A stretch of DNA of 64,000 bases from an uncultured virus (IMG/VR IMGVR_UViG_3300045125_000114) (lineage: Duplodnaviria > Heunggongvirae > Uroviricota > Caudoviricetes), in IMG/VR virus record IMGVR_UViG_3300045125_000114, one strand, 5' to 3'. The position numbers were made by a program, and so were the translations under genes. Of this stretch, positions 2,705 to 41,346 are shown one piece after another. Below the pieces are notes generated by a model that did not search any database, was not told where the DNA came from, and saw only the letters and a program-made list of their open reading frames with translations. Each line of letters opens with the position of its first letter. Within the stretch, counting starts at the first letter, position 1.

Positions 2705-3353
2705 CGCAGTCATCCTTATTGAGAGTTGGTCGGGCGACATAGACCAGACGGGAGAGCGCCCGTCTGGTGCAACAAGTTTTCTAAATTACTGCCGGGTCAA
2801 CAGAATGCCTTGAATCAGGATGGTAAGCGCGCTCCCACCGGTACAGGGGCAATTGCTTCTTGACCGTGGTGAGCGTGACGTATTCGCCATCAGTGCCGAA
2901 CGGCCCGTAAACATCGGCGGGCAGATTGTTCAAGCATTTGGCGATGAACTCGGCTTCTTCGGCAGACTTCGCAGGGTGAAACTTGTGGGTAGTCATTGCA
3001 GTTCCTTATGTGGTTGGGCGACCTTCAAGGTACAACTGTCTAAAACAGGCCGGGTGAGCGCCCCGGCCCGTTCGGGCTTCACATCGCCGCAATAGTGGCG
3101 ATCAGCTTGAGTTTGACGGCATCGTGCCCGGCGGGGTCGTCCCACGAGAAGATACCGTGTTCCATCGCTTTGGCGAGTTTGGGGTCGGTGACTTTGGCGA
3201 CTTCGAGGAGTTTTTCCCACTGCACTTCGAGGTCGGCGGTGTTGATGCCCGAATCGAGGATGCGGTGCGTGGTTTCTCGCATTGTTCTGTCCTTATGTTG
3301 GGTTGGGGCGACACCGGCTAGGGTACAAATGCCTAACCGGGAATAAACAAAAA

Positions 3354-6352: not shown

Positions 6353-6426
6353 GTCTCGCAGAGCGGTTTCGATCCGCCTTTTCCGGGTTGAAAGCCCAGC
6401 GTCTTAGCCACTAGACGACTGCGAGA
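6353..6426 (-). tRNA. tRNA-Glu(TTC)
   Basis: TCTCGCA/TGCGAGA acceptor stem, D arm GTCT-AGTGGCTA-AGAC, anticodon arm CTGGG-CTTTCAA-CCCGG, T arm with atypical ATCGAAA loop; CCA not encoded. Confidence 0.8.
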
Positions 6427-6462
6427 AAACCGGTTTTTCTAGAGGAACCGGCAAACCTCCGA

Positions 6463-6549
6463 GTGGGTTCTAAGGGAATCGCACCCATCGACTTCTTCCC
6501 GACGTTTATTGTCGCCTGTGTTACAGACAGGTGTCGGGGTTAAAACCCA
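6463..6549 (-). tRNA. Atypical tRNA-Tyr(GTA)-like RNA lacking a normal D arm
   Basis: TGGGTTT/AGAACCCA acceptor, CCTGT-CTGTAAC-ACAGG anticodon arm, GGG-TGCGATT-CCC T-like arm; CCCGAC/GTCGGG stem replaces the D arm. Confidence 0.5.
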
Positions 6550-6661
6550 TTAGCAAACGGCCGGGGGCTATCACCCTTGTGGCCTGTGGAAACCGGCGGC
6601 AACTTGACCGTTTGCTGTACTAAGACCAGACGGGAGAGTGCCCGTCTGGTGCAACAACTTT

Positions 6662-8273: not shown

Positions 8274-8303
8274 TTTCCTTACTCCTGTTGGGTTTGGTTG
8301 AGA

Positions 8304-8448
8304 CATAGACCAGACGGACATCCTTCGGGCGGGTGCAAGTTCTTTTCGTTTTTCTTTCGTCAGTCACTCGCACCGGACATAGACCAGACGGACATCCTTC
8401 GGGCGGGTGCAAGTTCTTTTTGTTTTTCTTTTCGTCACTCGCACCGGG
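8304..8448. repeat. Tandem duplication of an approximately 74 bp unit containing a variant motif A
   Basis: CATAGACCAGACGGACATCCTTCGGGCGGGTGCAAGTTCTTTT...TCACTCGCACCGG occurs at 8304 and again at 8378. Confidence 0.9.
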
Positions 8449-11951: not shown

Positions 11952-12809
11952 CTCTGCTCCTTATGTTTGGTGTCCGCATAGACCAGACGGGGAAGTCCCG
12001 TCCGGTACAACAATTACTTGTCGTTTTTCTCGTTCTCTTTCGGTGCCGGTTTGGTGGCCGAGCCGAGAACCGAGATGCCACAAGCGACGTAGACCTGTTT
12101 GGCATCTACGGGCTTGTCACGCCCCATTTCGGCGTGCTTGGCGTTGATTTGCTTGATGGTTTCCAGACTCCACATGGCCTACCTCCGAGAGAACTTAGGC
12201 TTCAGTTCGGGTTTCTTTTCGGGCTTACGGTTGAAGCTGCCCGTAAACTCGCTCGAAAATCGGTTCGTGTGCTGCGTACACTGGCGTTTTCACCAGAGAC
12301 GCCATGAACGCCGCCATCAGGGAAGCGTTGAAAAGGCCGGTCGCAATGTAGCTGCTGGTGAAGATGAGCAAGCCGCTGACGACCGCCCAACTGATCGACT
12401 TGATGATGGTCTTCTTCAACCTTATGTTCCTTCCTAGTTGTGAAATAAAGTGGCCGGGGCCGGGCGGAAATTAAGCGCTCGTCACGACACCGCCCGCCCC
12501 GGCATTTAACTCAGACGATCACTTGAATGGACTCGTTGATCGTCACGACGGCGAGAACGCCGTGGTAATCTCCCATTTCCTCGAACCAGTAGCGTGCCTC
12601 TTCCAGCACTTCATCGAAGTTCGTGCCCTCAACCGCATCGCCTTCCTCAGTCTGAATCACTTCGTACTCGTCAAGGTCGGAAGTGTAGTAGGCACGGGCC
12701 TGATACCGCACGGGCACTTGGATTGGTTCCGGCATGGCTTTCTTTCCTTATGTTTGAGTTTCGCACACATAGACCAGACGGGGAAGTTCCCGTCTGGTGC
12801 AACAAGTTT

Positions 12810-13112
12810 TCAGATTTCCTTGAAGCTCTTGGCGTCAACCTGAGTGTTGCAACCCGTCTTGACGCTGTACGCCACTCGGAACTCTTTTTCCGGCCACTGA
12901 TCGTAGGGCAGATTTTCCTTCGGCATGACCTTGTGGAACTCGGTTTGCGGCTTCACCAACACGACTTCGCCCTTGTCGAAGGCCACTCCCATCTTGGTTT
13001 TGACCTTCTTCGTGACGACCATCAGCACCCAATTGTCCCAATAGTTCTTGTACTGCGGGTACTGCGTGTGCTTGGCGTCGGCAATCGCAATCAGTTCGGT
13101 TCGCTTGTCCAT
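12810..13112 (-). CDS. Hypothetical protein
   Basis: Clean 100 aa ORF between two motif A copies. Confidence 0.75.
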   Translation of the reverse strand: MDKRTELIAIADAKHTQYPQYKNYWDNWVLMVVTKKVKTKMGVAFDKGEVVLVKPQTEFHKVMPKENLPYDQWPEKEFRVAYSVKTGCNTQVDAKSFKEI

Positions 13113-13859
13113 CTCTGCTCCTTATGTTGGGGACATAGACCAGACGGGGAGCGCCCGTCTGGTGCAACAAGTTTTCAGAATTGCTGGCCTTCTTCGGCGG
13201 CGCTCACACACACTTGGTTGATGAGATTGCGAAGGTCTTTTTCGAGTTTGACCATCGACTCGTGAACCGGATTGCCCATGTAGAACTGGCCTACGCTGCG
13301 GGCACGGTTAATCGCTTCCAGTGCGGTGAACGCCCCGGACAGAGCAACCCCGTAATTCGGGGCCGTGGCGTTCAGCGGCAGCGTGGTGCCGTCCTCGAAC
13401 GTCAGCACGCCCTTTTCGATGCTGACGTGGCCTTCGGTTTGCGCCAGCTTGTCAATTACTTTGGTCACGAAAGCACCTCGAACATGGGTTGATTGGGGCG
13501 AAACTGTTTGCGTGTCCAATTGGCGACCGGCGAAGTGGTTCGCTTCCGCTGGTCGAAGATTTGCGCCGAAACAACTTGGTCTTGGCCGAGATGAGCGTTG
13601 CAGCCGCCCGGCTTCATCGAATCCTCAAGAACCGCAACCCACTTGTCGATGTTTTCGGGAGTGGGCTTGCCCATGTCCTTCACACGCCACTCCTGCGGCG
13701 TGTAGTGATAACCGCTGACGCACTTGAACTCGATTCGGTACGTCCACGTTCGTGACCGGCCCATGATCGTTCTCCTTATGGTGTCCGCATAGACCAGACG
13801 GGGAAGTGCCCGTCCGGTGCAACAACTTACTCTTTTTTCGTAGTCACGAAACGATTTCA

Positions 13860-14020
13860 GAAAAGCAGGAACTCCCCCATTGCAGTTATCGGGGGGAGTC
13901 CCGGTGAGTTACGGTCCATACTCTGCCAATTACCGTTAGTCGTTCCCGGCTACGCCCGTGCGCTCCGGTACTTGACCTCACCTGCCCCACTCAACAGAGG
14001 TTTACGCCTCTATAGTTTAG
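13860..14020 (-). ncRNA. Candidate structured ncRNA occupying a motif-A-bounded slot
   Basis: No convincing ORF; GGTGAG/CTCACC, GCAGG/CCTGC and GGACTCCCC/GGGGAGTTCC pairings, then a T-run. Confidence 0.45.
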
Positions 14021-14687
14021 TGGCACAAAGACCAGACGGGGAAGTGCCCGTCTGGTACAACAATTTACCAAAATAAAGCAACTGCCCCGGCGATGATTCC
14101 GACAGTCGAAACGATGCCACAGTAGAACGGGCGCTTGTACCGGGAATCCATCGAACGATGCTGAAACCCGATTTTCTCTAGGCACCAGTCCAACGGAAGC
14201 CCGATCAGCATGAACAGCAGAATGAAAGTATCCAGCATGACTGACGGTTCCTTATCGTTAGAGGTTCGCAGAGGGACGCCGGGCGGCGCAATGTTTGTCT
14301 GCGGTGGTTAGCCGCCTGTTTGTGTAAGCCGCCCGGCGTCGTGTATTACGCCTTGACCTTGAACTTGCCCCGGTTCGCTTCGATGAACTCCCGAACCCGC
14401 TGCACGCCCTCTTCGCTGAACAGTTCTTCCGCTTGCGGCAGACTCATGTTGACCGGGAAGCGGAAGCCGTCGAAATTGATCTTGAGCCAACCCTTGTCGC
14501 CGATGTCCAGCTTGAACGGCTTTTTCGCCAGAGCCGCCAGCTTGTCGGTCATTTCGTCCAGCGTGATGCGCCCGGCCTTGAAGTCTGCGGCGATTTCTTC
14601 CTTCGTCATCTTCGTTCCCCTTAGTGGTTAGTGGTTCAGACATAGACTAGACGGGAGTAGTGCCGTCCGGTACAACAACTTTTTCAG

Positions 14688-14751
14688 TGGAGCCGCCCGG
14701 AGTCGAACCGGGTTAGCAATTTCGGCTGTGTCGCCACTACACTGCGGCCCC
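14688..14751 (-). ncRNA. Miniature tRNA-Ala-like RNA with truncated anticodon arm
   Basis: GGGGCCG/CGGCTCC-A acceptor (G3:U70, A73), D arm GTGT...ACAC, T arm CCCGG-TTCGACT-CCGGG, only a 3-bp AGC/GCT stem in the anticodon position. Confidence 0.65.
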
Positions 14752-17129
14752 GATTACATCAGTTCGCAACCCGTCCGGCGTTGGGGCGAATCCTCACGTC
14801 TTCGGCGAACATCGGCTTGGCGACCTGAACCGGAATGATTCGGAACTTCCAAGTGTTGCCGGTCTTGCTCTTGACCGTCAGAACGTCACCGACTTGGCCC
14901 TGCGACTTGACCGGAATGGTCACGTCGTCGCCGTTCTCACAGAGGAACGAGTACCCGCCGGGGCGCTCGATCAACTTCCCGGTGTAGTCCATCATGCCGG
15001 AAAACTCGCCGGTGCCCTCACCGCTCAAACCGATCAGCTTGGCCTTCTGCATCGTCGCTCCTTAGTTGGGTTGTGCCGCACAGGGTACAAAAGTTAAAGA
15101 TAAGGGGGCGGGCCAATTGTTGCCGCCCCCTTGTGTTCTTTTCAGCCGTCAGAGAAAGCCTGATGGGAATTGTCGCACCGTTTTCACCCTCACCACGGAT
15201 TTCCATTACGTCGGGGTTAGTGGGGCCACTTCGCAAGGTCGGCCTCGATAACCGTGCCGGGCTTTCCCCGGCACGATTCAAGTCCAGTGCATGGCTTTAC
15301 TATCTCGCTTATCGGCGGGCAGTTCTGAGAATCCCCCGCCCGGTTTGCCCCTTCTTACATTCCGAATTGCAGGCGGAACAGTTCGTCAATGTCGTCCGTG
15401 TCCATGTGCCCGCCCAACTCTGCCGAAATGTCGGCCTTCACACGCTCAAGCACGGACTCCTTGAGCGTATCCATGTGCTGCGCCACCAGAACCGGCAGCG
15501 ACGGGTTCACGGCGATTGTCGCCCACATCTCTTCGCCCACCGACTCACGGAACAGCTTCAACTGCGATGCCGGGTCTTTGGGCAGACCTTCCTTCACACG
15601 CTTCAGAATCGGCTCAAGAGTTTCCAACTGGTACTTCTCGGCATCGACACCGAGCGCCTTCGCCCGTTCCTCCGTCGCCGTTTCCATCTTGTTGAGAAGG
15701 TTGAGAATCTTGATTTGACTCAGTGGGTCCATTTTTACTCCGGTTTGGGTGCTTCGCACATAGACCAGACGGGAGAGGTGCCGATCTGGTGCAAGTTCTT
15801 TACTGATTTTCCAGCCACTCAACAAGCTCGCCGTCTTCCGTCACGCCGGGCACCTTCCAACCACACACCTTGCACTGGAATCGTTCGGTAGTGGCGTCCG
15901 TGATTTCCGGTCGCCGTAAATCACTTCGCCGTCTTCAACAGATACGTTGGTGACAACGTATGCGTCCGATTGGCAGCATTCGAGTTGAGTTCCGCCACAC
16001 GACGGACACTTGAAAACAGGATTTTCCATATGTTTGTTTCCGGTTCGGGGTTGTCGCACATAGACCAGACGGGAGAGGTGCCGTCTGGTGCAAGTTCTTT
16101 TAGCTTTTTTCCGCCTCGGCCGCACCCATCTTCTTGAACGAAGTGGCCGAAGAACCGAACGCCAGCGCCGTGAAGTCCACGTCTTCGCTCTTGAGTAGAT
16201 GAATGCTGCGAAGAAGGTTGGCGTCGGCCAGTTCCCGCATGATGCGAGACAGTTCCCAATACAACAGCACCCGACCGTCTGCCAACACAATCCCCTTGTC
16301 GCCCACTTCGTCAATGATCGGTTCGGACACGTTCATTCCCCCGTAAAATATTGGTCAACGAAACTTTCGGCGAGCCACCGGACAGAAGGAAAATCCTTAC
16401 GCTACGCCAATCCGCTTCTCGTTGTCAGTAGATTTCCGTCACCCGCTGGAACTGACTCGCACTGCGCGTATCTCGGCCGGGTCTTCACAACCCGCTCGCC
16501 TTCGCAACAGTTCTCGCAACTGGTTCTGCGAACCGTGCCGAGAATACCATACAGGTTATCCCAACGGGCAGTCCTTGCGAGCGTCGAACTCGGTCAGAGG
16601 AATGTCAGAAGGAACTACCGACTCGATACGTCGAGCGGCACCAACAAAAATTGCTTCGGTAATCAGAACCAACTGGTTCCGGTTAAAAATCGCAGACATT
16701 AGGACACATTACCCTTGACGGTTTTGACCGTCCTTGTACTCTTTCAGAAGCCTTTCGTACTTCTCTTTGGCCTTGCGGATTCGTTCGTCCACTTTAGCCA
16801 TTGCGGACGGCGTGTTGCACCGCTCCCCGTAACCACGATCAGCAAGCTCTCGCCAACGACGATAAGCCTCTTCCCACGGTTGCATAAGCACTCCTTATGT
16901 TGGTTCCAGCACAAAGACCAGACGGGCACACACCCGTCTGGTGCAACAACTATCCTTCAATTTCGGGAGCTGCCAATGTCTACGTTGGTCACGTCCACCA
17001 GTTCGTCCTTGACCTCGTGCGCCGTCGCCCCGTCCTCTTCAATCCTCGAAACGGCGTCTGCGGCGCTGTCGGCCTCTACAACACATTCGACACGGTAGAT
17101 GCGAGTTTCGTTCACGACGACACGGTATT

Positions 17130-24297: not shown

Positions 24298-25355
24298 ACA
24301 ATCCCCCGCTTGTCCAACTCAGTTAGTCCCGCTTGAGTGATAGTATAGCCTTTGTTGGTACACAGTACAGTACGCCGCCGAATCGTCCGTGTCCGTCAGA
24401 AGCCACGGCATAATGAAACGCTCTACTTCTTCCGCCTTCTTCCCTGCGACGTTCACAATGCGATTCTTCGCTACCGGCCCTTGACCCACGCCCGGAGAAT
24501 CGCCAAGTGCGTTTCGTGCATACCGTGTTCGTCAATGCCTTCATCAGCCGCTACACGGCGAGCTACTTCCGCCCACTCGCCGCCTTCCATCTGATGAACT
24601 AGCTTCACATAACGGGCAAACTCCAACGCCTTCCGAGGAACACGACTGTTGTAATGCGCCACCAACTTACAAACATCATCCGAGAAGTCGGGATTAGCCA
24701 ATTGAACGATCTTGGCAATGTCAGACTTCGGGAGATACTTGAGGTTTACCGGCGAAAACCGAGTGCGGAAAGCATCGAACAGCTTGCCCTCATCCGTAGT
24801 CGCCAACATCCAACAAGCGTTAAAGCAATTGATCGTCTTGCCGGATTCCGTTACCATCGTTGCGTCAGAGTGTTCCGTAGCCTTCAACAGCCCGTCAACA
24901 ACGCTCTGGCTCAGTGCGTGAACTTCATCGAAGAACACAACACACGGCGGCAAAACGTAATGCTTCGGCTTCACAACCTCTACCAGCGGAACGTGCGCTT
25001 CCTTCAACACACGCTCGATAAGGGCGAAAAGCCCGTCCATATCCTTGACCGACTTCGGAGAGACTTCCACAAACGGCAGTTCGACTACCGTAGCGAACAT
25101 CTTCGCCAACGTGGTCTTACCCGCCGACGCCGGGCCGTAAATGGCAAACGCCAAATCACGGCACAAGTGGTCAGGCTTGCCGAGAGCATCGAAAGCCGCC
25201 GCTTGCAACTTACGAATCGCCTTGTCGTTGCCAATGAAGCGGCTAAACGCACACTTCCCGTTCTCCCGACTCACCGCCGAACGCCGCTCATCAAGCGACG
25301 GAATCGGCAGAAAGTCCGGGTGCTTCGGGCCGAAAAACACCTTGTATCGCTGCAT
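24261..25355 (-). CDS. ruvB: RuvB-like Holliday junction branch-migration AAA+ ATPase (frameshift near C-terminus)
   Basis: FIGN, Walker A GPASAGKTTLA, Walker B FFDEVHAL, LATT..GKL..AFRTRF, VPRKA, GIDEHG, then a GPV...PWL winged-helix-like tail in the shifted frame. Confidence 0.75.
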
Positions 25356-25424
25356 CAGTTTCTCCCTAATGGGCAAAGACCAGACGGGGCAAACCCCGGC
25401 CGGTGCAACTTCTTCAGCAAAAAA

Positions 25425-25478
25425 TGGAGCATGACGGAGTTGAACCGTCCCGATCAGCCGCCCCCGGCGGAATGCCCC
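25425..25478 (-). ncRNA. 54-nt tRNA-Ala-like minihelix RNA
   Basis: GGGGCAT/ATGCTCC-A acceptor (G3:U70, A73), T arm GACGG-TTCAACT-CCGTC, one CCGCC/GGCGG hairpin instead of D and anticodon arms. Confidence 0.6.
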
Positions 25479-25620
25479 GCACAGCCCGGTTCGGGGTACA
25501 AATGTCTGACTCCACCATCAGCCTTTTGTACCACAACGCCAATTCGCTTTACAAACGCCTTCACACGGAGTAACATGAGCTTACCCTGTGGATTGGGCGG
25601 GCGAGCGTCGCAACTCCCCA

Positions 25621-25652
25621 AAACACCCGGTAGCTCATGCTACCGGGTGTTT
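25621..25652. terminator. Bidirectional intrinsic terminator
   Basis: AAACACCCGGTAGC-TCAT-GCTACCGGGTGTTT perfect hairpin with A/T runs on both sides. Confidence 0.75.
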
Positions 25653-26606
25653 GTTTTTCAGGTATTCGGGCGATTCACGCCCTTACACCCGCACCGCCAC
25701 CGTGTCACGGCTCGCACATGCGGGTCGGTAGCCGGTCAGCACACCCGCCCGACAACACAGGGTACAAATGCCTAACCTACTGTACAAAAGATCAAAAAGG
25801 ACGTACCGGGCGGATCGGGCAGGATCGAGGAGTTTTGGGGCGGAACCTTGACGACCGGCCCGGATCGTCCTAGACTGAAATTGCACCACCTGGGGGTCGC
25901 CGACAGCCGGTCCACAACCCTGTCGTTTTCCGCCAGAAGCCCTGCACAACTCTTCGGAGCGGTGCAGGGTTTTTCTTTTGTTTCCAGTTTACAAGCTTCA
26001 CAAAACGTGGTACAGTCTTCACAGAGAGCGGCGGCTAACGCCGCTGGCTTTCGGCCCCACGGGTATGGGCGACCCGTGGGGTCTTTTCATTTCTATTTGG
26101 CACATTCGGACAGTATCCCTAACCCCAATCCATGTCGGGATAGTTCTCGTTCCCTTACGTTCCACTCACCAACACACCACACGTCCGATAATCACCGTTA
26201 TGTACCTTTGAAAACTCTACCAATCATACAAACATATCTTCACATCAACTCACAATCAAACACAAATCAATTGCTTTTTATTTCCAATTCACACGAATGC
26301 CCCGTGAAATCTCTCCAAAAGGTCCGAAATCATCAAGAAATCCGGGAAAAATTTGGCGGAAATGAAAAGGGCGCAGACCCACTTTTGGTGCGAATCCTTA
26401 CGACCCCCTTACACAAGACGTTAAGTGCTTGTTTTCTTTGGAGTTTACGGCTTGCACACTTTTGGGGTTCGGTTGGTGTTTGGGTTTAATTTTTGCGTTG
26501 CTGCACAGGTGGTTTGGGGTGTATTGCACAACCGTTTGTGGGTGTTGTGGTTGTGTTGTGGTGTGGGTGTTGTGGATATGTCTTGAGGGGATATGTAGTG
26601 TGTGAG

Positions 26607-37012: not shown

Positions 37013-40000
37013 TTAGTATTCTGCCGTCAAGTTCGCAGTGACCGAAACGAGGGCGTTAGTAGTCCAGTTGTTGGCCGAATTGCCAAAGCCCGTACCTTTT
37101 GTACTGGTTCCGGTCAGAGACACCGTGCCAGCACTTCCTGCGTTGACCGAATAAGAAGCACCCGCTTCAAGAGAAGGTGTTGTTCTCATTTCAGAAGGAA
37201 AACCGATAACGCCTCTGCCGTACATATTGTCACCGTTTTGAGCAACGCCGATGGCTTGGCCTGAATAAGTCATGTAATATCTGAAACACCGGTGCATTTC
37301 GTAATCGAAGGCAACTGGTGTATAGCGTGCCCCGGTCGCTCCGAGTGTTATAGCAACCTGACTCAAGTAGAACGTGTTGCTCGTGCTGTCCGTTCCGTTG
37401 ACTTGATTCGACGTTGAGAAAAAGTTTCCAGTTGTCCAAGACCCGGCCGTGGTTTGGTAAGTGCTTCCCCCGGCAATAGTGAAATACACTCTCAGTCCGA
37501 CGCCGTTGGTAATTTGCCAAACGCCATCGGTCAGCACCGGAGAAGCTGCTATAGTTACGGTTTTGTACTCCCATGTGTTTGAAACGCTGATGCTGTACTC
37601 TGCAACATAGCTCCTGTCGTTGCCAGAGTTGACGAACCCCACACAGTACGTTCCGGTTTTGAACGCACGAACCCAGAACGAAAGTGTGAACTGTTGCTGA
37701 GTTATGGCTTGGAAATCGTAGCCTTCTATGATGTATCTAATCGCAGTGTAATCATTGGCGGTAATAGACGCATCGGCCGTTGTGACCGCCAATTTGTAAG
37801 AATATAGACTGTAATTGCCAGATTGAGCTACAGTCGGGACTACTGTATTTTCTTGCGTTGCCGACAGGACGGCGGCACCCGAACAGATAACCGCCCACCG
37901 GTCTGCGGCGTAAGTTATCGCTCCGGTGATACCAGTAAAGCTCGTTCCCCGCTGCCAAATGTTGAAGTTGCCATTGATGATAATGTTGTTGATGGTTCCT
38001 GTAACTTTGGCAGCATTTACGTTGTCAATTGTCCAAACCGTACCCGAACTCGAAACAGTGATGTCACCATAATCTGCATCGGCTACGGTGGTGCCGCTCG
38101 CAGTGAGTGTCGTTCCGCTTACACTGAGTCCGGTTCCTGCCGTGAGCCACGTTACTTGTCCGGCACTATCGTCCCAGAACAGGATACGGTCGGCATTAGG
38201 GTCTGCAAGTGATGCCCCGGTGCCACCGTAGGCCAATCCAATTGCCGTTCCGTTCCATGTGCCGCTGGTGATCGTACCGACCGTAGCGATGTCGGTGCCG
38301 ATGAGTTTGGAGGCTGCAATTGAGCCTGCCAACATGCTGTTGGTTACAACGCCTGCGGCAATTGTTGTTGCAAAGCTACCCGTACCACTTCCCGTGACGT
38401 TCCCGGTCAAAGTGATCGTTTGGTCGCCGGTGTTGGTGCCGCTGCTTGTCCCGCTGATTGTGGCATCGCCGGACAAGGTGAGAACACGATCTGCATCACC
38501 GGTTGTGATAGTCAGAGTGTGGTCTGCTGTCAGGTTGGACCCGACAACGAGGCCGAGGGTGTGACTGGCGTTCGTGTCCAGTATTTTTACGCCACTGGAA
38601 TTTACAAATGTTTGAGCCGCACTCCAACTGTTGGCCCCGTCCAAAAGTGGAACATTGGTCCCGCTTGTGCCCGTGTTTTGTACTGCTGCCGTGCCAAGAC
38701 CAAGTGTAGTTCTCTGTGCTGTAGAGTCGGCATCATCGAGAATGGCCTCTACCGGCTGCCGTACAGGTAATTTCCTCTACAGTGGTGCCCGTTGCGTCAT
38801 TTCCTAGCAATACGTTTGCTGAAACGGCTTGCATCTTGGCAAAGGTTACAGAACCAGCCGCAATTGTTGTTGCAAAGCTACCCGTACCACTTCCCGTGAC
38901 ATCACCGGTGAGGGTGATCGTTTGGTCGCCGGTGTTGGTGCCGCTGCTTGTCCCGCTGATTGTAGCATCGCCGGACAAGGTAAGAACACGATCTGCATCA
39001 CCTGTTGTGATGGTGAGGAGTGTGGTCTGCTGTCAGGTTGGACCCGACAACTAGGCCGAGGGTGTGGCTTAGCGTTCGTATCCAGTATCTTCACGCCAGA
39101 ACTGTTTACAAATGTCTGTGCCGCACTCCAACTGTTCGCCCCCATCCAACAGTGGAACATTGGTGCCGCTTGTGCCCGTGTTTTGTACTGCTGCCGTGCC
39201 AAGACCAAGTGTAGTTCTCTGATCCCCTGCTGTGGCATCATCGAGAATGGCTCTACCGGCTGCTGTACAGGTAATTTCTTCTACAGTGGTGCCCGTTGCG
39301 TCGTTGCCGAGCAATATGTTTGCTGAAACGGCTTGCATCTTGGCAAAGGTTACAACGCCGGGGTCAATTGTCCAAACCGTGCCCGAACTCGAAACAGTGA
39401 TGTCGCCATAGTCACCATCAGACAAAGCGGCACCACTTGCGGTCAATGTCGTTCCTGTAATATTCAGGCCACTCCCCGCCGTGAGCCACGTTACTTGTCC
39501 GGCACTATCGTCCCAGAACAGGATGCGGTCGGCGTTCGGGTCGGCCAGTGCCGCACCGGTTCCACCATAGCCTAAAGCAATTGCAGTTCCGGTCCAAGTG
39601 CCACTGGTGATTGTACCGACAGTTGCGATGTCGGTCCCAACGAGTTTGGATGCTGCAATTGATCCTGCCAACATGCTGTTGGTTACAACACCGGCTGCAA
39701 TTGTTGTAGCAAAGCTACCCGTACCGCTGCCCGTGACATTTCCGGTAAGAGTGATGGTTTGATCGCCGGTGTTAGTGCCGCTGATTGTGGCATCGCCGGA
39801 AAGTGTCAACACCCGGCTTGCATCGCCCGTTGTGATGGTGAGAGTACGAGTTGCTGTCAGGTCGGACCCGACAACGAGGCCGAGGGTGTGGCTTGCGTTT
39901 GTGTCCAGTATCTTTACGCCAGAACTGTTTGCAAACGTCTGTGCCGCACTCTCAACTGTTTGCACCGTCCAGCAACGGAACGGTATTTCCACTCGGTGCC

Positions 40001-41346
40001 CGTATCCTTTATTGCCGTTGTGCCGAGGCCGAGGTTGCTACGGGCCGTTACGGGGTTTATGAGTTCGCTGAGATTGTTGGCGGCATTGCGGAATGAGCCA
40101 ACGTTTTGGGTGGCTATACTGCCCAATCCGAGGTTACTTCGGGCGGTTGTTGTGTTGGTTAGTTCGCTGAGATTGTTGGCGGGCTGTAGGAAGTCTGCCG
40201 CATCCATCGTAGCCAAGTCGCCCAATCCGAGGTTGTTCCGGGCGGCTGACGCACTGCCGAGGTCGTTCAGGTTGTTGGCGGCTTGCAGGAAGAACGTAAC
40301 GTCCTTGATTGCTGCCCCGCCCAATCCGAGGTTGTTTCGGGCGGCTGTCAGAACTACCGAGGTCGTTCAGATTGTTGGCGGCTTGTAGGAAGAACGTAGT
40401 GTCTTTGACGGCCGCTGTACCGAGGCCGAGGTTGTTTCTTGAAGCCGATGCACTGGCAACGTCGTTGAGGTTATTTGCCGATTGGAGGAAGAAAGCAGTA
40501 TTTTTTGTAGACGCAGTACCAAGTCCGGTAATGTCGGTATTGGGTATGGTGGTAGTTGCGAAAACGTTGCTCCCGTCACCTTGAACGTAGCCGACCAAAT
40601 CCGTATCGGTGTCTTCGCTAATGAAGGTTGGGATACTAGATGCGGTCCACTCTTGGGTGTCGGAGTGCCACTGTAGGAACTGGCCGTTGGCCGGTGCGTC
40701 CATTGCAATGTCGTAACCTTGCAATTTGTTTGCGTTCCATACGGCTTCTGTGTTGCCCACTTGAGCGGCGGTAACTCTGTGCGGGTTGTCCAGATCGTCT
40801 ATGTGTTCACGCCACACGGAGTCTTCAAATCCGAGGGCGGTAACGCCGCCGCCGCCCGAAACGGGTCGTTTTTCGTCGTCGTATCTCTTGATTACTGGTG
40901 TGAAACCGACCGGGATTACGCCGCCGTTGAATTTGTTTTGCGAGTAACCGTTGACTATTGAAGTCCTGACGAGCGACTGTTCGCTTTCCGGCACCACGAC
41001 TTCGACGCCTTTGGGCGGCTTTCTCGGCCTTTCCAGAGCGGTCGAATTAGCGCCGCCAGAAAGCTTGACTTTGCTGGTAGCTTTTTGCGTTGAGAGTGCG
41101 GGGGCCAGAGCGTTTTTGATGGTTTTTACGGTAACGCCATCATTTGTAAGCTTCTTGGTGACAGATTTTGTCTGTTGCGGGGCTACTTTGGCAACCCCTT
41201 TTGGTTCTTTTCTGGGTCTGGGCGTGGTAGAAACAACGACGCCGCCCTGATCCTGACGAACGGCTCCTTTTGGGAGTCGAGCCGCCGGGAATCAGGGCAC
41301 CTTTGACCGTTGTGGTCTTTATTCCGTCATTGGTTGTCTGTTGCAT
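37013..41346 (-). CDS. Long repeat-rich tail fibre / receptor-binding protein (several frameshifts; may be more than one gene)
   Basis: G/T/S/A-rich; NNLxxLxxxxxARxNLGLG repeats; duplicated SGTNTGDQTITLTG and ADPNADRILFWDDSAG blocks; C-terminal IINGNFNIWQRG...ADRW...RCFRYY domain. Confidence 0.8.

Follow-up and report, generated by a model that had tools for sequence, protein, structure and literature searches.

A 64,000-nucleotide stretch of DNA from an uncultured virus (referred to below, at its full length, as the window) carries on its minus strand a 64-nucleotide element, here termed E1, that is almost certainly a genuine tRNA-derived structure of alanine type from which the anticodon arm is missing. 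The case for E1 being functional in this genome is about evenly balanced, and the reading that we favour, tentatively and with a little less than even confidence, is that it represents an accessory, non-decoding mimic of the 'top half' of tRNA-Ala, probably chargeable with alanine, that would act by occupying a host factor. A second and shorter element of the same type (E2) was found elsewhere in the window, and the general armless, alanine-type design was shown to recur across many viral contigs.

Structure and detection of E1

An earlier note on this DNA had described a 64-nucleotide RNA with a 7-base-pair acceptor, A73, D and T arms and, in place of an anticodon arm, only a 3-base-pair stem. 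The size, coordinates, acceptor, A73, T arm and short stem so described were all confirmed in the sequence, and the element was resolved into the following parts, read on the minus strand from G1 (14751) to A73 (14688).

14688..14751, minus strand: E1, the 64-nucleotide alanine-type tRNA-like element without an anticodon arm (sequence, structural scan, shuffles and folds)
14745..14751, minus strand: acceptor 5' strand GGGGCCG, pairing at seven of seven positions with 14689-14695
14728..14742, minus strand: D-like hairpin GUGU-AGUGGCG-ACAC, with GG in its loop (sequence)
14715..14727, minus strand: 3-base-pair stub AGC/GCU with loop CGAAAUU, at the place of the anticodon arm (sequence)
14696..14712, minus strand: T arm CCCGG-UUCGACU-CCGGG, with five Watson-Crick pairs (pairing probabilities 0.78-1.0)
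14689..14695, minus strand: acceptor 3' strand CGGCUCC, followed by A73 at 14688 (structural scan)

The single wobble in the fully paired acceptor helix is G3:U70, and the complete set of acceptor determinants tabulated for bacterial alanine identity in PMC9976931 (A73, G2-C71, G3.U70 and G4-C69) was found in E1, in keeping with the alanine identity that had been claimed for it, and again in E2. For G20, a minor determinant, the numbering of the D loop is ambiguous. Positions 8-9 are CA, with C instead of U at position 8. The T arm is canonical, with a loop of the GTTCRANYC type: GGTTCGACTCC is present exactly and in one copy within the window, and the T-loop region is likewise the sole exact occurrence there of GGTTCGANTCC. 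The stack of acceptor and T stem (7 + 5 pairs, or 12 bp), together with its T loop, was recovered by ViennaRNA with pairing probabilities of 0.31-1.0. The trailer that follows A73 is CUG, and CCA is not encoded; the bona fide tRNA-Glu of the window (6353-6425) also has no encoded CCA, and its absence at E1 and E2 is therefore no argument against function.

The lower half of the molecule departs from that of a tRNA. From the D-like hairpin (plus one unpaired A) to the T arm there are 14 nucleotides, where the equivalent part of a tRNA, comprising the anticodon arm and variable loop, has approximately 22. The stub, which an AA linker joins to the T arm, adds -1.5 kcal/mol to a cloverleaf drawing (ViennaRNA), and its 7-nucleotide loop lacks both U33 and the purine expected at position 37 (R37), so that it is not an anticodon loop; the combination of a 5-base-pair stem with a 7-nucleotide loop, U33 and R37 that characterizes a canonical anticodon arm is not present. 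As for the D arm of the earlier description, a 4-base-pair hairpin with GG in its loop can indeed be drawn, but its probability in the ViennaRNA ensemble is zero and it is absent from the minimum-energy fold (-30.3 kcal/mol), in which the acceptor helix extends into a 5-base-pair helix with a small hairpin cap. The cloverleaf-like drawing, at -25.2 kcal/mol, is the less stable of the two. As modelled, a D arm followed by a 3-base-pair stub is one of two readings of the interior of E1, and the acceptor and T arm appear in both.

The searches with tRNA finders and Infernal-type models that the earlier note had proposed were carried out, and E1 was called by neither ARAGORN nor Rfam: ARAGORN found the tRNA-Glu at 6353-6425 alone in the window, and Rfam models applied to the whole window at their gathering thresholds again returned just that gene. 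At E<=10, the top Rfam match over E1 was to tRNA-Sec (16.2 bits, E=2.8), and matches were found neither to the tRNA model RF00005 (gathering score 29 bits) nor to the standard tmRNA model RF00023. The sole tmRNA-type match at that level was to the permuted-tmRNA model (15.7 bits, E=0.6), covering the T arm and 3' strand; a permuted tmRNA was rejected, the match having paired the T arm of E1 with the ribosome-binding site of the next gene.

Detection relied instead upon a structural scan that demanded a T-loop of T[TG]C[AG]A, five Watson-Crick T-stem pairs and seven acceptor pairs (at least six of them Watson-Crick), and that returned two elements from the window, E1 and E2. The same scan applied to 200 dinucleotide-preserving shuffles gave a mean of 0.01, with one element in two shuffles, two elements in none and G3:U70 in none, a control that rules out a chance origin for E1. 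A looser scan of the window, in which any loop sequence was accepted, added no further element whose loop is T-like.

E2 and the genomic setting of both elements

The second element lies some distance upstream on the same strand and is accompanied by two further features.

25495..25502, minus strand: core of the promoter-like motif B, 17 nucleotides upstream of G1 of E2 (motif scan)
25425..25478, minus strand: E2, a 54-nucleotide alanine-type element (structural scan and folds)
25419..25424, minus strand: U6 tract immediately 3' of A73 of E2 (sequence)

E2 combines the acceptor GGGGCAU/AUGCUCC (G3:U70, then A73) with a single small GC hairpin and the T arm GACGG-UUCAACU-CCGUC. Acceptor pairs 1-5 are common to the two elements, which differ, with both partners changed, at acceptor pairs 6-7 and, in the T stem, at 49:65 and 50:64. 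ViennaRNA gave both the same shape, in which the acceptor helix leads into a short hairpin-capped helix, a few unpaired bases and then the T arm. The best Rfam matches of E2, to mascRNA (17.1 bits) and tRNA (16.9 bits), are both below threshold. No gene intervenes between motif B and E2, and the possession of its own copy of that motif, together with the U6 tract after A73, gives E2 the look, judged from its sequence, of a stand-alone small RNA gene. The gene that follows E2 encodes a clamp-loader/RuvB-like AAA ATPase. A link between tRNA-like elements and such ATPase genes was considered and rejected, the sole good phage match (45% identity, in a 595-kb uncultured phage) having neither an element nor a tRNA within 12 kb.

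E1, by comparison, is closely hemmed in by its neighbours, which are as follows.

15084..15091, minus strand: motif B core TTTGTACC, promoter-like, ahead of the 97-amino-acid gene (motif scan)
14759..15052, minus strand: 97-amino-acid gene upstream of E1, of no known family (one 95%-identical protein cluster known)
14759..14763, minus strand: upstream copy of ACTGA, including the stop codon of the 97-amino-acid gene (sequence)
14684..14688, minus strand: downstream copy of ACTGA, corresponding to A73 and the trailer of E1 (sequence)
14641..14686, minus strand: copy of motif A (a hairpin repeat, family D1) ahead of the gene at 14346-14609 (repeat scan)

The stop codon of the 97-amino-acid gene ends 8 nucleotides before G1 of E1, a gap too short to hold a separate promoter, so that E1 is probably co-transcribed with that gene; the motif B copy at 15084..15091 is, on its sequence, the probable start of the transcript that carries it. 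Downstream, the next motif A core begins approximately 11 nucleotides past A73, in agreement with the 10 that had been noted earlier. Motif A is present in at least 33 copies, before nearly every small minus-strand gene from approximately 25400 down to 400, and the motif B core TTTGTACC in 12 minus-strand copies within the window, at least eight of which are followed within approximately 30-45 nucleotides by a ribosome-binding site and start codon (a count made by eye). The array of small leftward genes that holds E1 and E2 is one that we take to be early. The window as a whole looks like a portion of a phage that has almost no known relatives; it has matches to tail-fibre PHROG families at 37013-40997 (best 1.7e-37) and encodes an endonuclease VII/HNH-like protein as well as the clamp-loader-like AAA ATPase; the remainder of its genes comprise dozens of small open reading frames without a family. 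Pfam and PHROG searches of the flanking genes returned no matches, and no defence-related neighbour was found among them.

Turnover of E1 among relatives

Parts of the window were found in 20 public runs from 14 studies, no RNA data set being listed for the stretch, and four of these runs (X1, X6, X8 and X14) were compared over positions 14300-15100. X6 had no contig at the site of E1, which was covered by the three related contigs described here.

X8: contig of 474 nucleotides, depth 4, one substitution; E1 present, the C run at the base of its T stem being longer by one base
X1: contig of 8401 nucleotides, depth 67, 11 substitutions in approximately 780 nucleotides; E1 minus 15 nucleotides at 14699 and 5 nucleotides at 14715
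X14: contig of 531 nucleotides, depth 23, approximately 93% identical; 14688 joined to 14791, with 18 other letters between

The two deletions in X1 (20 nucleotides together) removed the 3' strand of the stub and, from the T arm, the entire 5' strand, the loop and some of the 3' strand, while the acceptor strands and the D-like hairpin were left untouched. In X14, a run that is labelled RNA-Seq yet flagged as probably DNA, the 18 intervening letters match 14763-14781, and the net effect is that 14689-14762 are missing. That missing stretch is flanked in the window by the 5-nucleotide direct repeat ACTGA (14763-14759 and 14688-14684), and since the upstream copy holds the stop codon of the 97-amino-acid gene, the end of the reading frame is retained in both forms.

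All three covering relatives therefore carry indels inside or touching E1, which is intact in one of them (X8), without its T arm in a second (X1) and absent from the third (X14). E1 is an optional feature of the phage group to which it belongs, and its turnover indicates that it is not under strong constraint; the conservation on which the earlier note had made its reading depend was thus found in X8 but not in X1 or X14. The same note had allowed that the short arm might be an assembly deletion or that relatives might possess a full anticodon arm. No such arm is present in any of the three contigs, and X8 displays the same short arm at a depth of 4, but X8 may represent the source sample itself, or one of its siblings, and is correspondingly weak as an independent check upon the assembly.

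Searches further afield covered both the element and its surroundings. A search of viral contigs with the flanking proteins confirmed no relative, a pattern for the interior of E1 and one for motif A each gave no matches in those contigs (IMG/VR), and motif A had none in genome contigs (GTDB). A blastn search with positions 13500-16000 found no match among GenBank phage records, and the matches of E1 and E2 themselves to phage records were only of the size of a T arm and fell in ordinary tRNAs or in coding DNA. A full-length ancestor of E1 was not found in a scan of JGI metagenomes with a pattern for both ends and a full-length or shorter middle; the single metagenome match to that pattern (L001) was dismissed as a chance and unrelated occurrence inside GC-rich, coding-looking DNA.

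Parentage, proposed role and competing explanations

Both tRNA-Ala and tmRNA could have supplied the T-loop and 3' acceptor strand of E1: among 122 fetched bacterial loci that carry these sequences, 61 were tRNA-Ala, 30 were tmRNA, three received other tRNA calls and 28 were uncalled, a mixture by which this half of the element cannot separate the two parents. The 5' half aligned better to tRNA-Ala (mean score 6.39) than to tmRNA (3.65). E1 shares with tRNA-Ala the alanine acceptor determinants, a D-like hairpin with GG and the T arm, and differs from it in having no 5-base-pair anticodon stem or anticodon loop, a short variable region and C8 rather than U8.

The closest published design is that of a phage tmRNA reduced to its tRNA-like end, whereas in sequence E1 is nearer to tRNA-Ala. 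This RNA is listed as 'Mycobacterium phage DS6A (TLD only)' by Hudson, Lau and Williams (PMC4131195), where inhibition of tmRNA is reported for a DS6A-like molecule, and the TLD-only form is repeated in a 2025 tmRNA database paper (PMC11915505); in the literature consulted, DS6A is the only phage example named. The DS6A element was located at JN698994 28478-28556, where the record has no RNA feature, and it matched RF00023 from end to end. Like E1, it is phage-encoded, has the acceptor GGGGCCG/CGGCUCC with G3:U70 and A73, carries CA at positions 8-9, possesses a canonical T arm but neither an anticodon arm nor a tag reading frame (for which the 64 nucleotides of E1 leave no room), and is missed by routine annotation. 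The two differ in that DS6A, at 80 nucleotides, scores 34.7 bits with RF00023, which does not match the 64 nucleotides of E1, and in that the longer helix by which DS6A replaces the anticodon stem is missing from E1; a 4-base-pair D stem, which tmRNA does not have, can form in E1; and neither the homology to tmRNA ends that the DS6A type would be expected to have (a 5' GG..CGAC loop with no D stem) nor consistent retention among related phages was found. The interpretation offered in the earlier note is supported in part: E1 is tRNA-derived and without an anticodon arm, carries the alanine determinants, conforms in shape to a published kind and is accompanied in the window by E2.

Two further classes of RNA are similar in outline. 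The tmRNAs without a coding sequence from organelles (jakobid mitochondria and plastids, the plastid forms being approximately 65 bp in length; PMC11915505) resemble E1 in size, in consisting of a tRNA-like domain only and in carrying no message, but they are organellar and are tmRNAs by homology, whereas E1 is viral and no tmRNA homology was detected in it. RNAs of the mascRNA type (RF01684) combine an acceptor and T arm with a reduced lower half, and supply the best Rfam match of E2. They are eukaryotic, and the score of E2 (17.1 against a threshold of 42.5 bits) makes this a likeness of shape only. Such RNAs are cut from a longer transcript by tRNA-processing enzymes.

In the mechanism that we propose for E1, RNase P would cut the transcript at G1, the 3' end would be trimmed and then given CCA, and the host alanyl-tRNA synthetase would charge the product with alanine, as may be supposed from the alanine minihelices reportedly described by Francklyn and Schimmel in 1989. 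Without an anticodon such an RNA cannot decode, and by analogy with DS6A it would instead tie up those host factors by which the top half of alanine-accepting RNAs is recognized; the candidate targets, in order, would be ribosome rescue by SmpB/tmRNA and then EF-Tu or enzymes that act upon the acceptor end. That trans-translation in particular is the target, a suggestion drawn from that analogy, is doubtful. An alternative role suggested previously, as a donor for alanine tailing, is weakened, since in tRNA-Ala it is the anticodon arm that Ala-tailing factors recognize.

Beside E2, E1 looks like a dispensable second cassette. It is also conceivable, at about the same low level of confidence as a trans-translation target, that both mimics represent an independent route, from tRNA-Ala, to a DS6A-like design that soaks up a host factor reading alanine RNAs; that factor would be SmpB/tmRNA rescue, EF-Tu or a defence enzyme that targets acceptor ends. 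Were this so, the close relatives in which the T arm is deleted or the element is cleanly missing would amount to natural knock-outs of an accessory counter-host RNA. Phage RNAs that copy just the alanine-accepting end of a tRNA or tmRNA escape the finders designed for either, and the present case adds to DS6A a shorter and more tRNA-like form, the presence of two copies in a single phage, close relatives that represent natural loss variants and, from the census described below, a hint of dozens more in viral contigs. If charged and active, RNAs of this kind would offer phages a simple means of tampering with ribosome rescue or with other surveillance of tRNA ends; if not, the present case would provide a clean example of the decay of phage tRNA genes.

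Such decay, in which E1 would be the functionless remnant of a tRNA-Ala gene that has lost most of its anticodon arm, is the competing explanation that survives best, and we regard it as unlikely while giving it appreciable weight. The piling up of indels within E1 in its close relatives (X1, X14 and X8), its rejection by tRNA finders and the greater similarity of its 5' half to tRNA-Ala than to tmRNA are what a decaying gene would be expected to display, yet every helix that remains in E1 is perfect and no relative retains a full-length ancestor. E2, moreover, is also without a lower half, and has an alanine acceptor, a promoter-like motif ahead of it and a U tract behind; decay would be unlikely to leave two alanine-type remnants independently of one another.

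A census of viral contigs bears upon the same question from both sides. The pattern GGGGC-N15-40-GGTTCRANTCC-N5-GCTCCA identified 114 loci, 45 of which (47 rows, 40 distinct sequences, 42-67 nucleotides in length) had perfect acceptor and T stems, meaning that they were also paired at the positions left free by the pattern (acceptor pairs 6-7 and three T-stem pairs), for which the chance expectation is approximately 0.7%. Some of these perfect elements recur, with a few changes, in contigs from different samples, and by a count made by eye CCA adjoins approximately 21 of the 47 good rows; recurrence and encoded CCA are both at odds with mere remnants. ARAGORN left 42 of the 45 perfect loci uncalled, and the three overlaps were with an undetermined tRNA, a tRNA-Arg and a tRNA-Tyr, the last of these loci being a probable false positive. 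A control pattern that differed by one base, and thereby specified an acceptor with G3:C70, gave 67 loci, 10 of them perfect and armless (8 distinct sequences). At full-length spacing (41-62 nucleotides), the alanine pattern was estimated to occur in 1800 stored stretches and the control in 450, with 103 of 120 and 106 of 119 fetched loci, respectively, well paired. The armless share of full-length counterparts was thereby estimated at approximately 2.9% for GGGGC/GCUCC and 2.5% for G3:C70, much as a constant background of deletion would produce, which favours decay. With a control of this small size, no enrichment of alanine identity was seen among the short forms, and the comparison cautions against regarding that identity as specially selected in them.

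An improbable explanation is that E1 serves as a signal for RNase P, for 3'-end processing or for stability within an early polycistronic RNA, setting apart or protecting the mRNA upstream of it, and that the RNA released has no role of its own. RNase P needs an acceptor/T-arm stack, which E1 retains intact; the element begins 8 nucleotides past a same-strand stop codon and ends approximately 11 before the next motif A; the armless design is also seen with acceptors that are not of alanine type; and the best Rfam match of E2, at just 17.1 bits, is to mascRNA. More than 30 other junctions in the array, however, have motif A and no tRNA-like element, so that E1 is no general punctuation device, relatives manage without it, and the full alanine identity set that E1 and E2 both keep would be superfluous at an RNase P site.

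Very unlikely, in our estimation, is a role for E1 in diverting, as a decoy or sponge, the host defence enzymes by which acceptor ends are attacked, or in baiting a sensor. An intact acceptor end, a location in the early-gene region of a phage and presence/absence variation typical of counter-defence genes would all suit such a role, but the flanking genes, with no Pfam or PHROG matches, include no defence-related neighbour, and the particular version put forward in the earlier note, in which anticodon nucleases would be decoyed, is hard to reconcile with an RNA that has no anticodon loop with which to bait them. Two further candidates were rejected outright: an attP core (both acceptor strands are present, and the open reading frames scanned include no integrase) and an intrinsic terminator (no U tract lies 3' of E1).

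A D-arm-like hairpin such as that of E1 is present in other viral elements of the census (for example, L046, L076 and L079), while several have GG..UUCGAC after the acceptor strand, comparable to the Rfam tmRNA consensus, and at least one match to the G3:C70 control (L150) carries a tmRNA-like 5' stretch.

The direct repeat around E1 and a second element

The alanine-type tRNA-like element that lacks an anticodon arm (E1, 64 nt, minus strand of the window) is enclosed by a short direct repeat, and a smaller element of the same design (E2) is found elsewhere in the window, next to a copy of a repeat that we term motif A. The corresponding features are as follows.

14759-14763 and 14684-14688, minus strand: ACTGA, a 5-nt direct repeat flanking E1 plus 11 nt
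25425-25478, minus strand: E2, an alanine-type anticodon-less tRNA-like element of 54 nt
415-25412 (for example 12768-12813), minus-strand reading: motif A, a 46-nt repeat in at least 33 copies

In the related contig of public sequencing run X14, exactly one copy of ACTGA is present and the intervening stretch is absent; this difference between the window and X14 fits either a microhomology deletion or an insertion. E2 is preceded, at a distance of 17 nt, by a promoter-like motif and is directly followed by U6, with a motif A copy and a gene for a clamp-loader/RuvB-like AAA ATPase (24471-25376) located downstream.

Armless elements in other viral contigs

Some of the armless alanine-type elements in IMG/VR viral contigs (loci L046, L079 and L109) are enclosed or adjoined by ordinary tRNA genes: one lies between tRNA-Gly and tRNA-Val, one 220 nt away from a normal tRNA-Ala on a 358-kb contig, and one immediately ahead of tRNA-Asp. 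At other IMG/VR loci, the acceptor of an armless tRNA-like element has G3:C70 instead (L150, with a tmRNA-like 5' stretch, GGGGCUGGAAUGGUUUGAC; L128 and L157, both with an encoded CCA), and the armless design is therefore not strictly bound to the G3:U70 pair.

Repeated motifs of the leftward genes

Read on the minus strand, motif A consists of GTTGCACC, followed by a 9-bp hairpin (of the type CAGACGGG..CCCGTCTG) with a loop of 4-5 nt, and then by GTCTATG; it is positioned 25-30 nt upstream of the ribosome-binding site at nearly all small leftward genes. Its spacing is incompatible with a sigma-70 promoter; the motif may act as a promoter particular to the phage, as an operator or as a hairpin for RNA processing. 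Two copies of a variant (8302-8357 and 8376-8431; 98% identity, separation 74 nt) display a hairpin arm unlike the family consensus.

A further repeated sequence is promoter-like, and usually lies 30-45 nt upstream of a start codon.

15084-15091, 3322-3329 and 25495-25502, minus strand: examples of motif B (..GTTAGRCWTTTGTACCC..), 12 minus-strand copies in the window

Some of its copies are paired in inverted orientation, at 1572/1595 and at 25502/25525.

An apparently non-coding RNA of about 190 nt (6426-6620, minus strand) is bordered by a motif A copy on one side and, on the other, by a tRNA-Glu gene that directly adjoins the ribosome-binding site of the next gene. This stretch contains a T-loop-like GGTGCGATTCC at 6475-6485, but no tRNA-like fold was found in it.

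Probable module boundary and tail-fibre duplications

Near position 26000, GC content falls from approximately 0.55 to 0.49 and GC skew passes from negative to strongly positive, a shift that coincides with a non-coding region (25480-26100) harboring several terminator-like hairpins; this position is probably the border between two genome modules. Tail-fibre-like genes carry long internal duplications (38024-39992 and 40021-40537), of 300 nt at 82% identity and of 174-187 nt at 80-91%, and the ORF at 40134-40997 contains a tandem run of about five 99-nt units.
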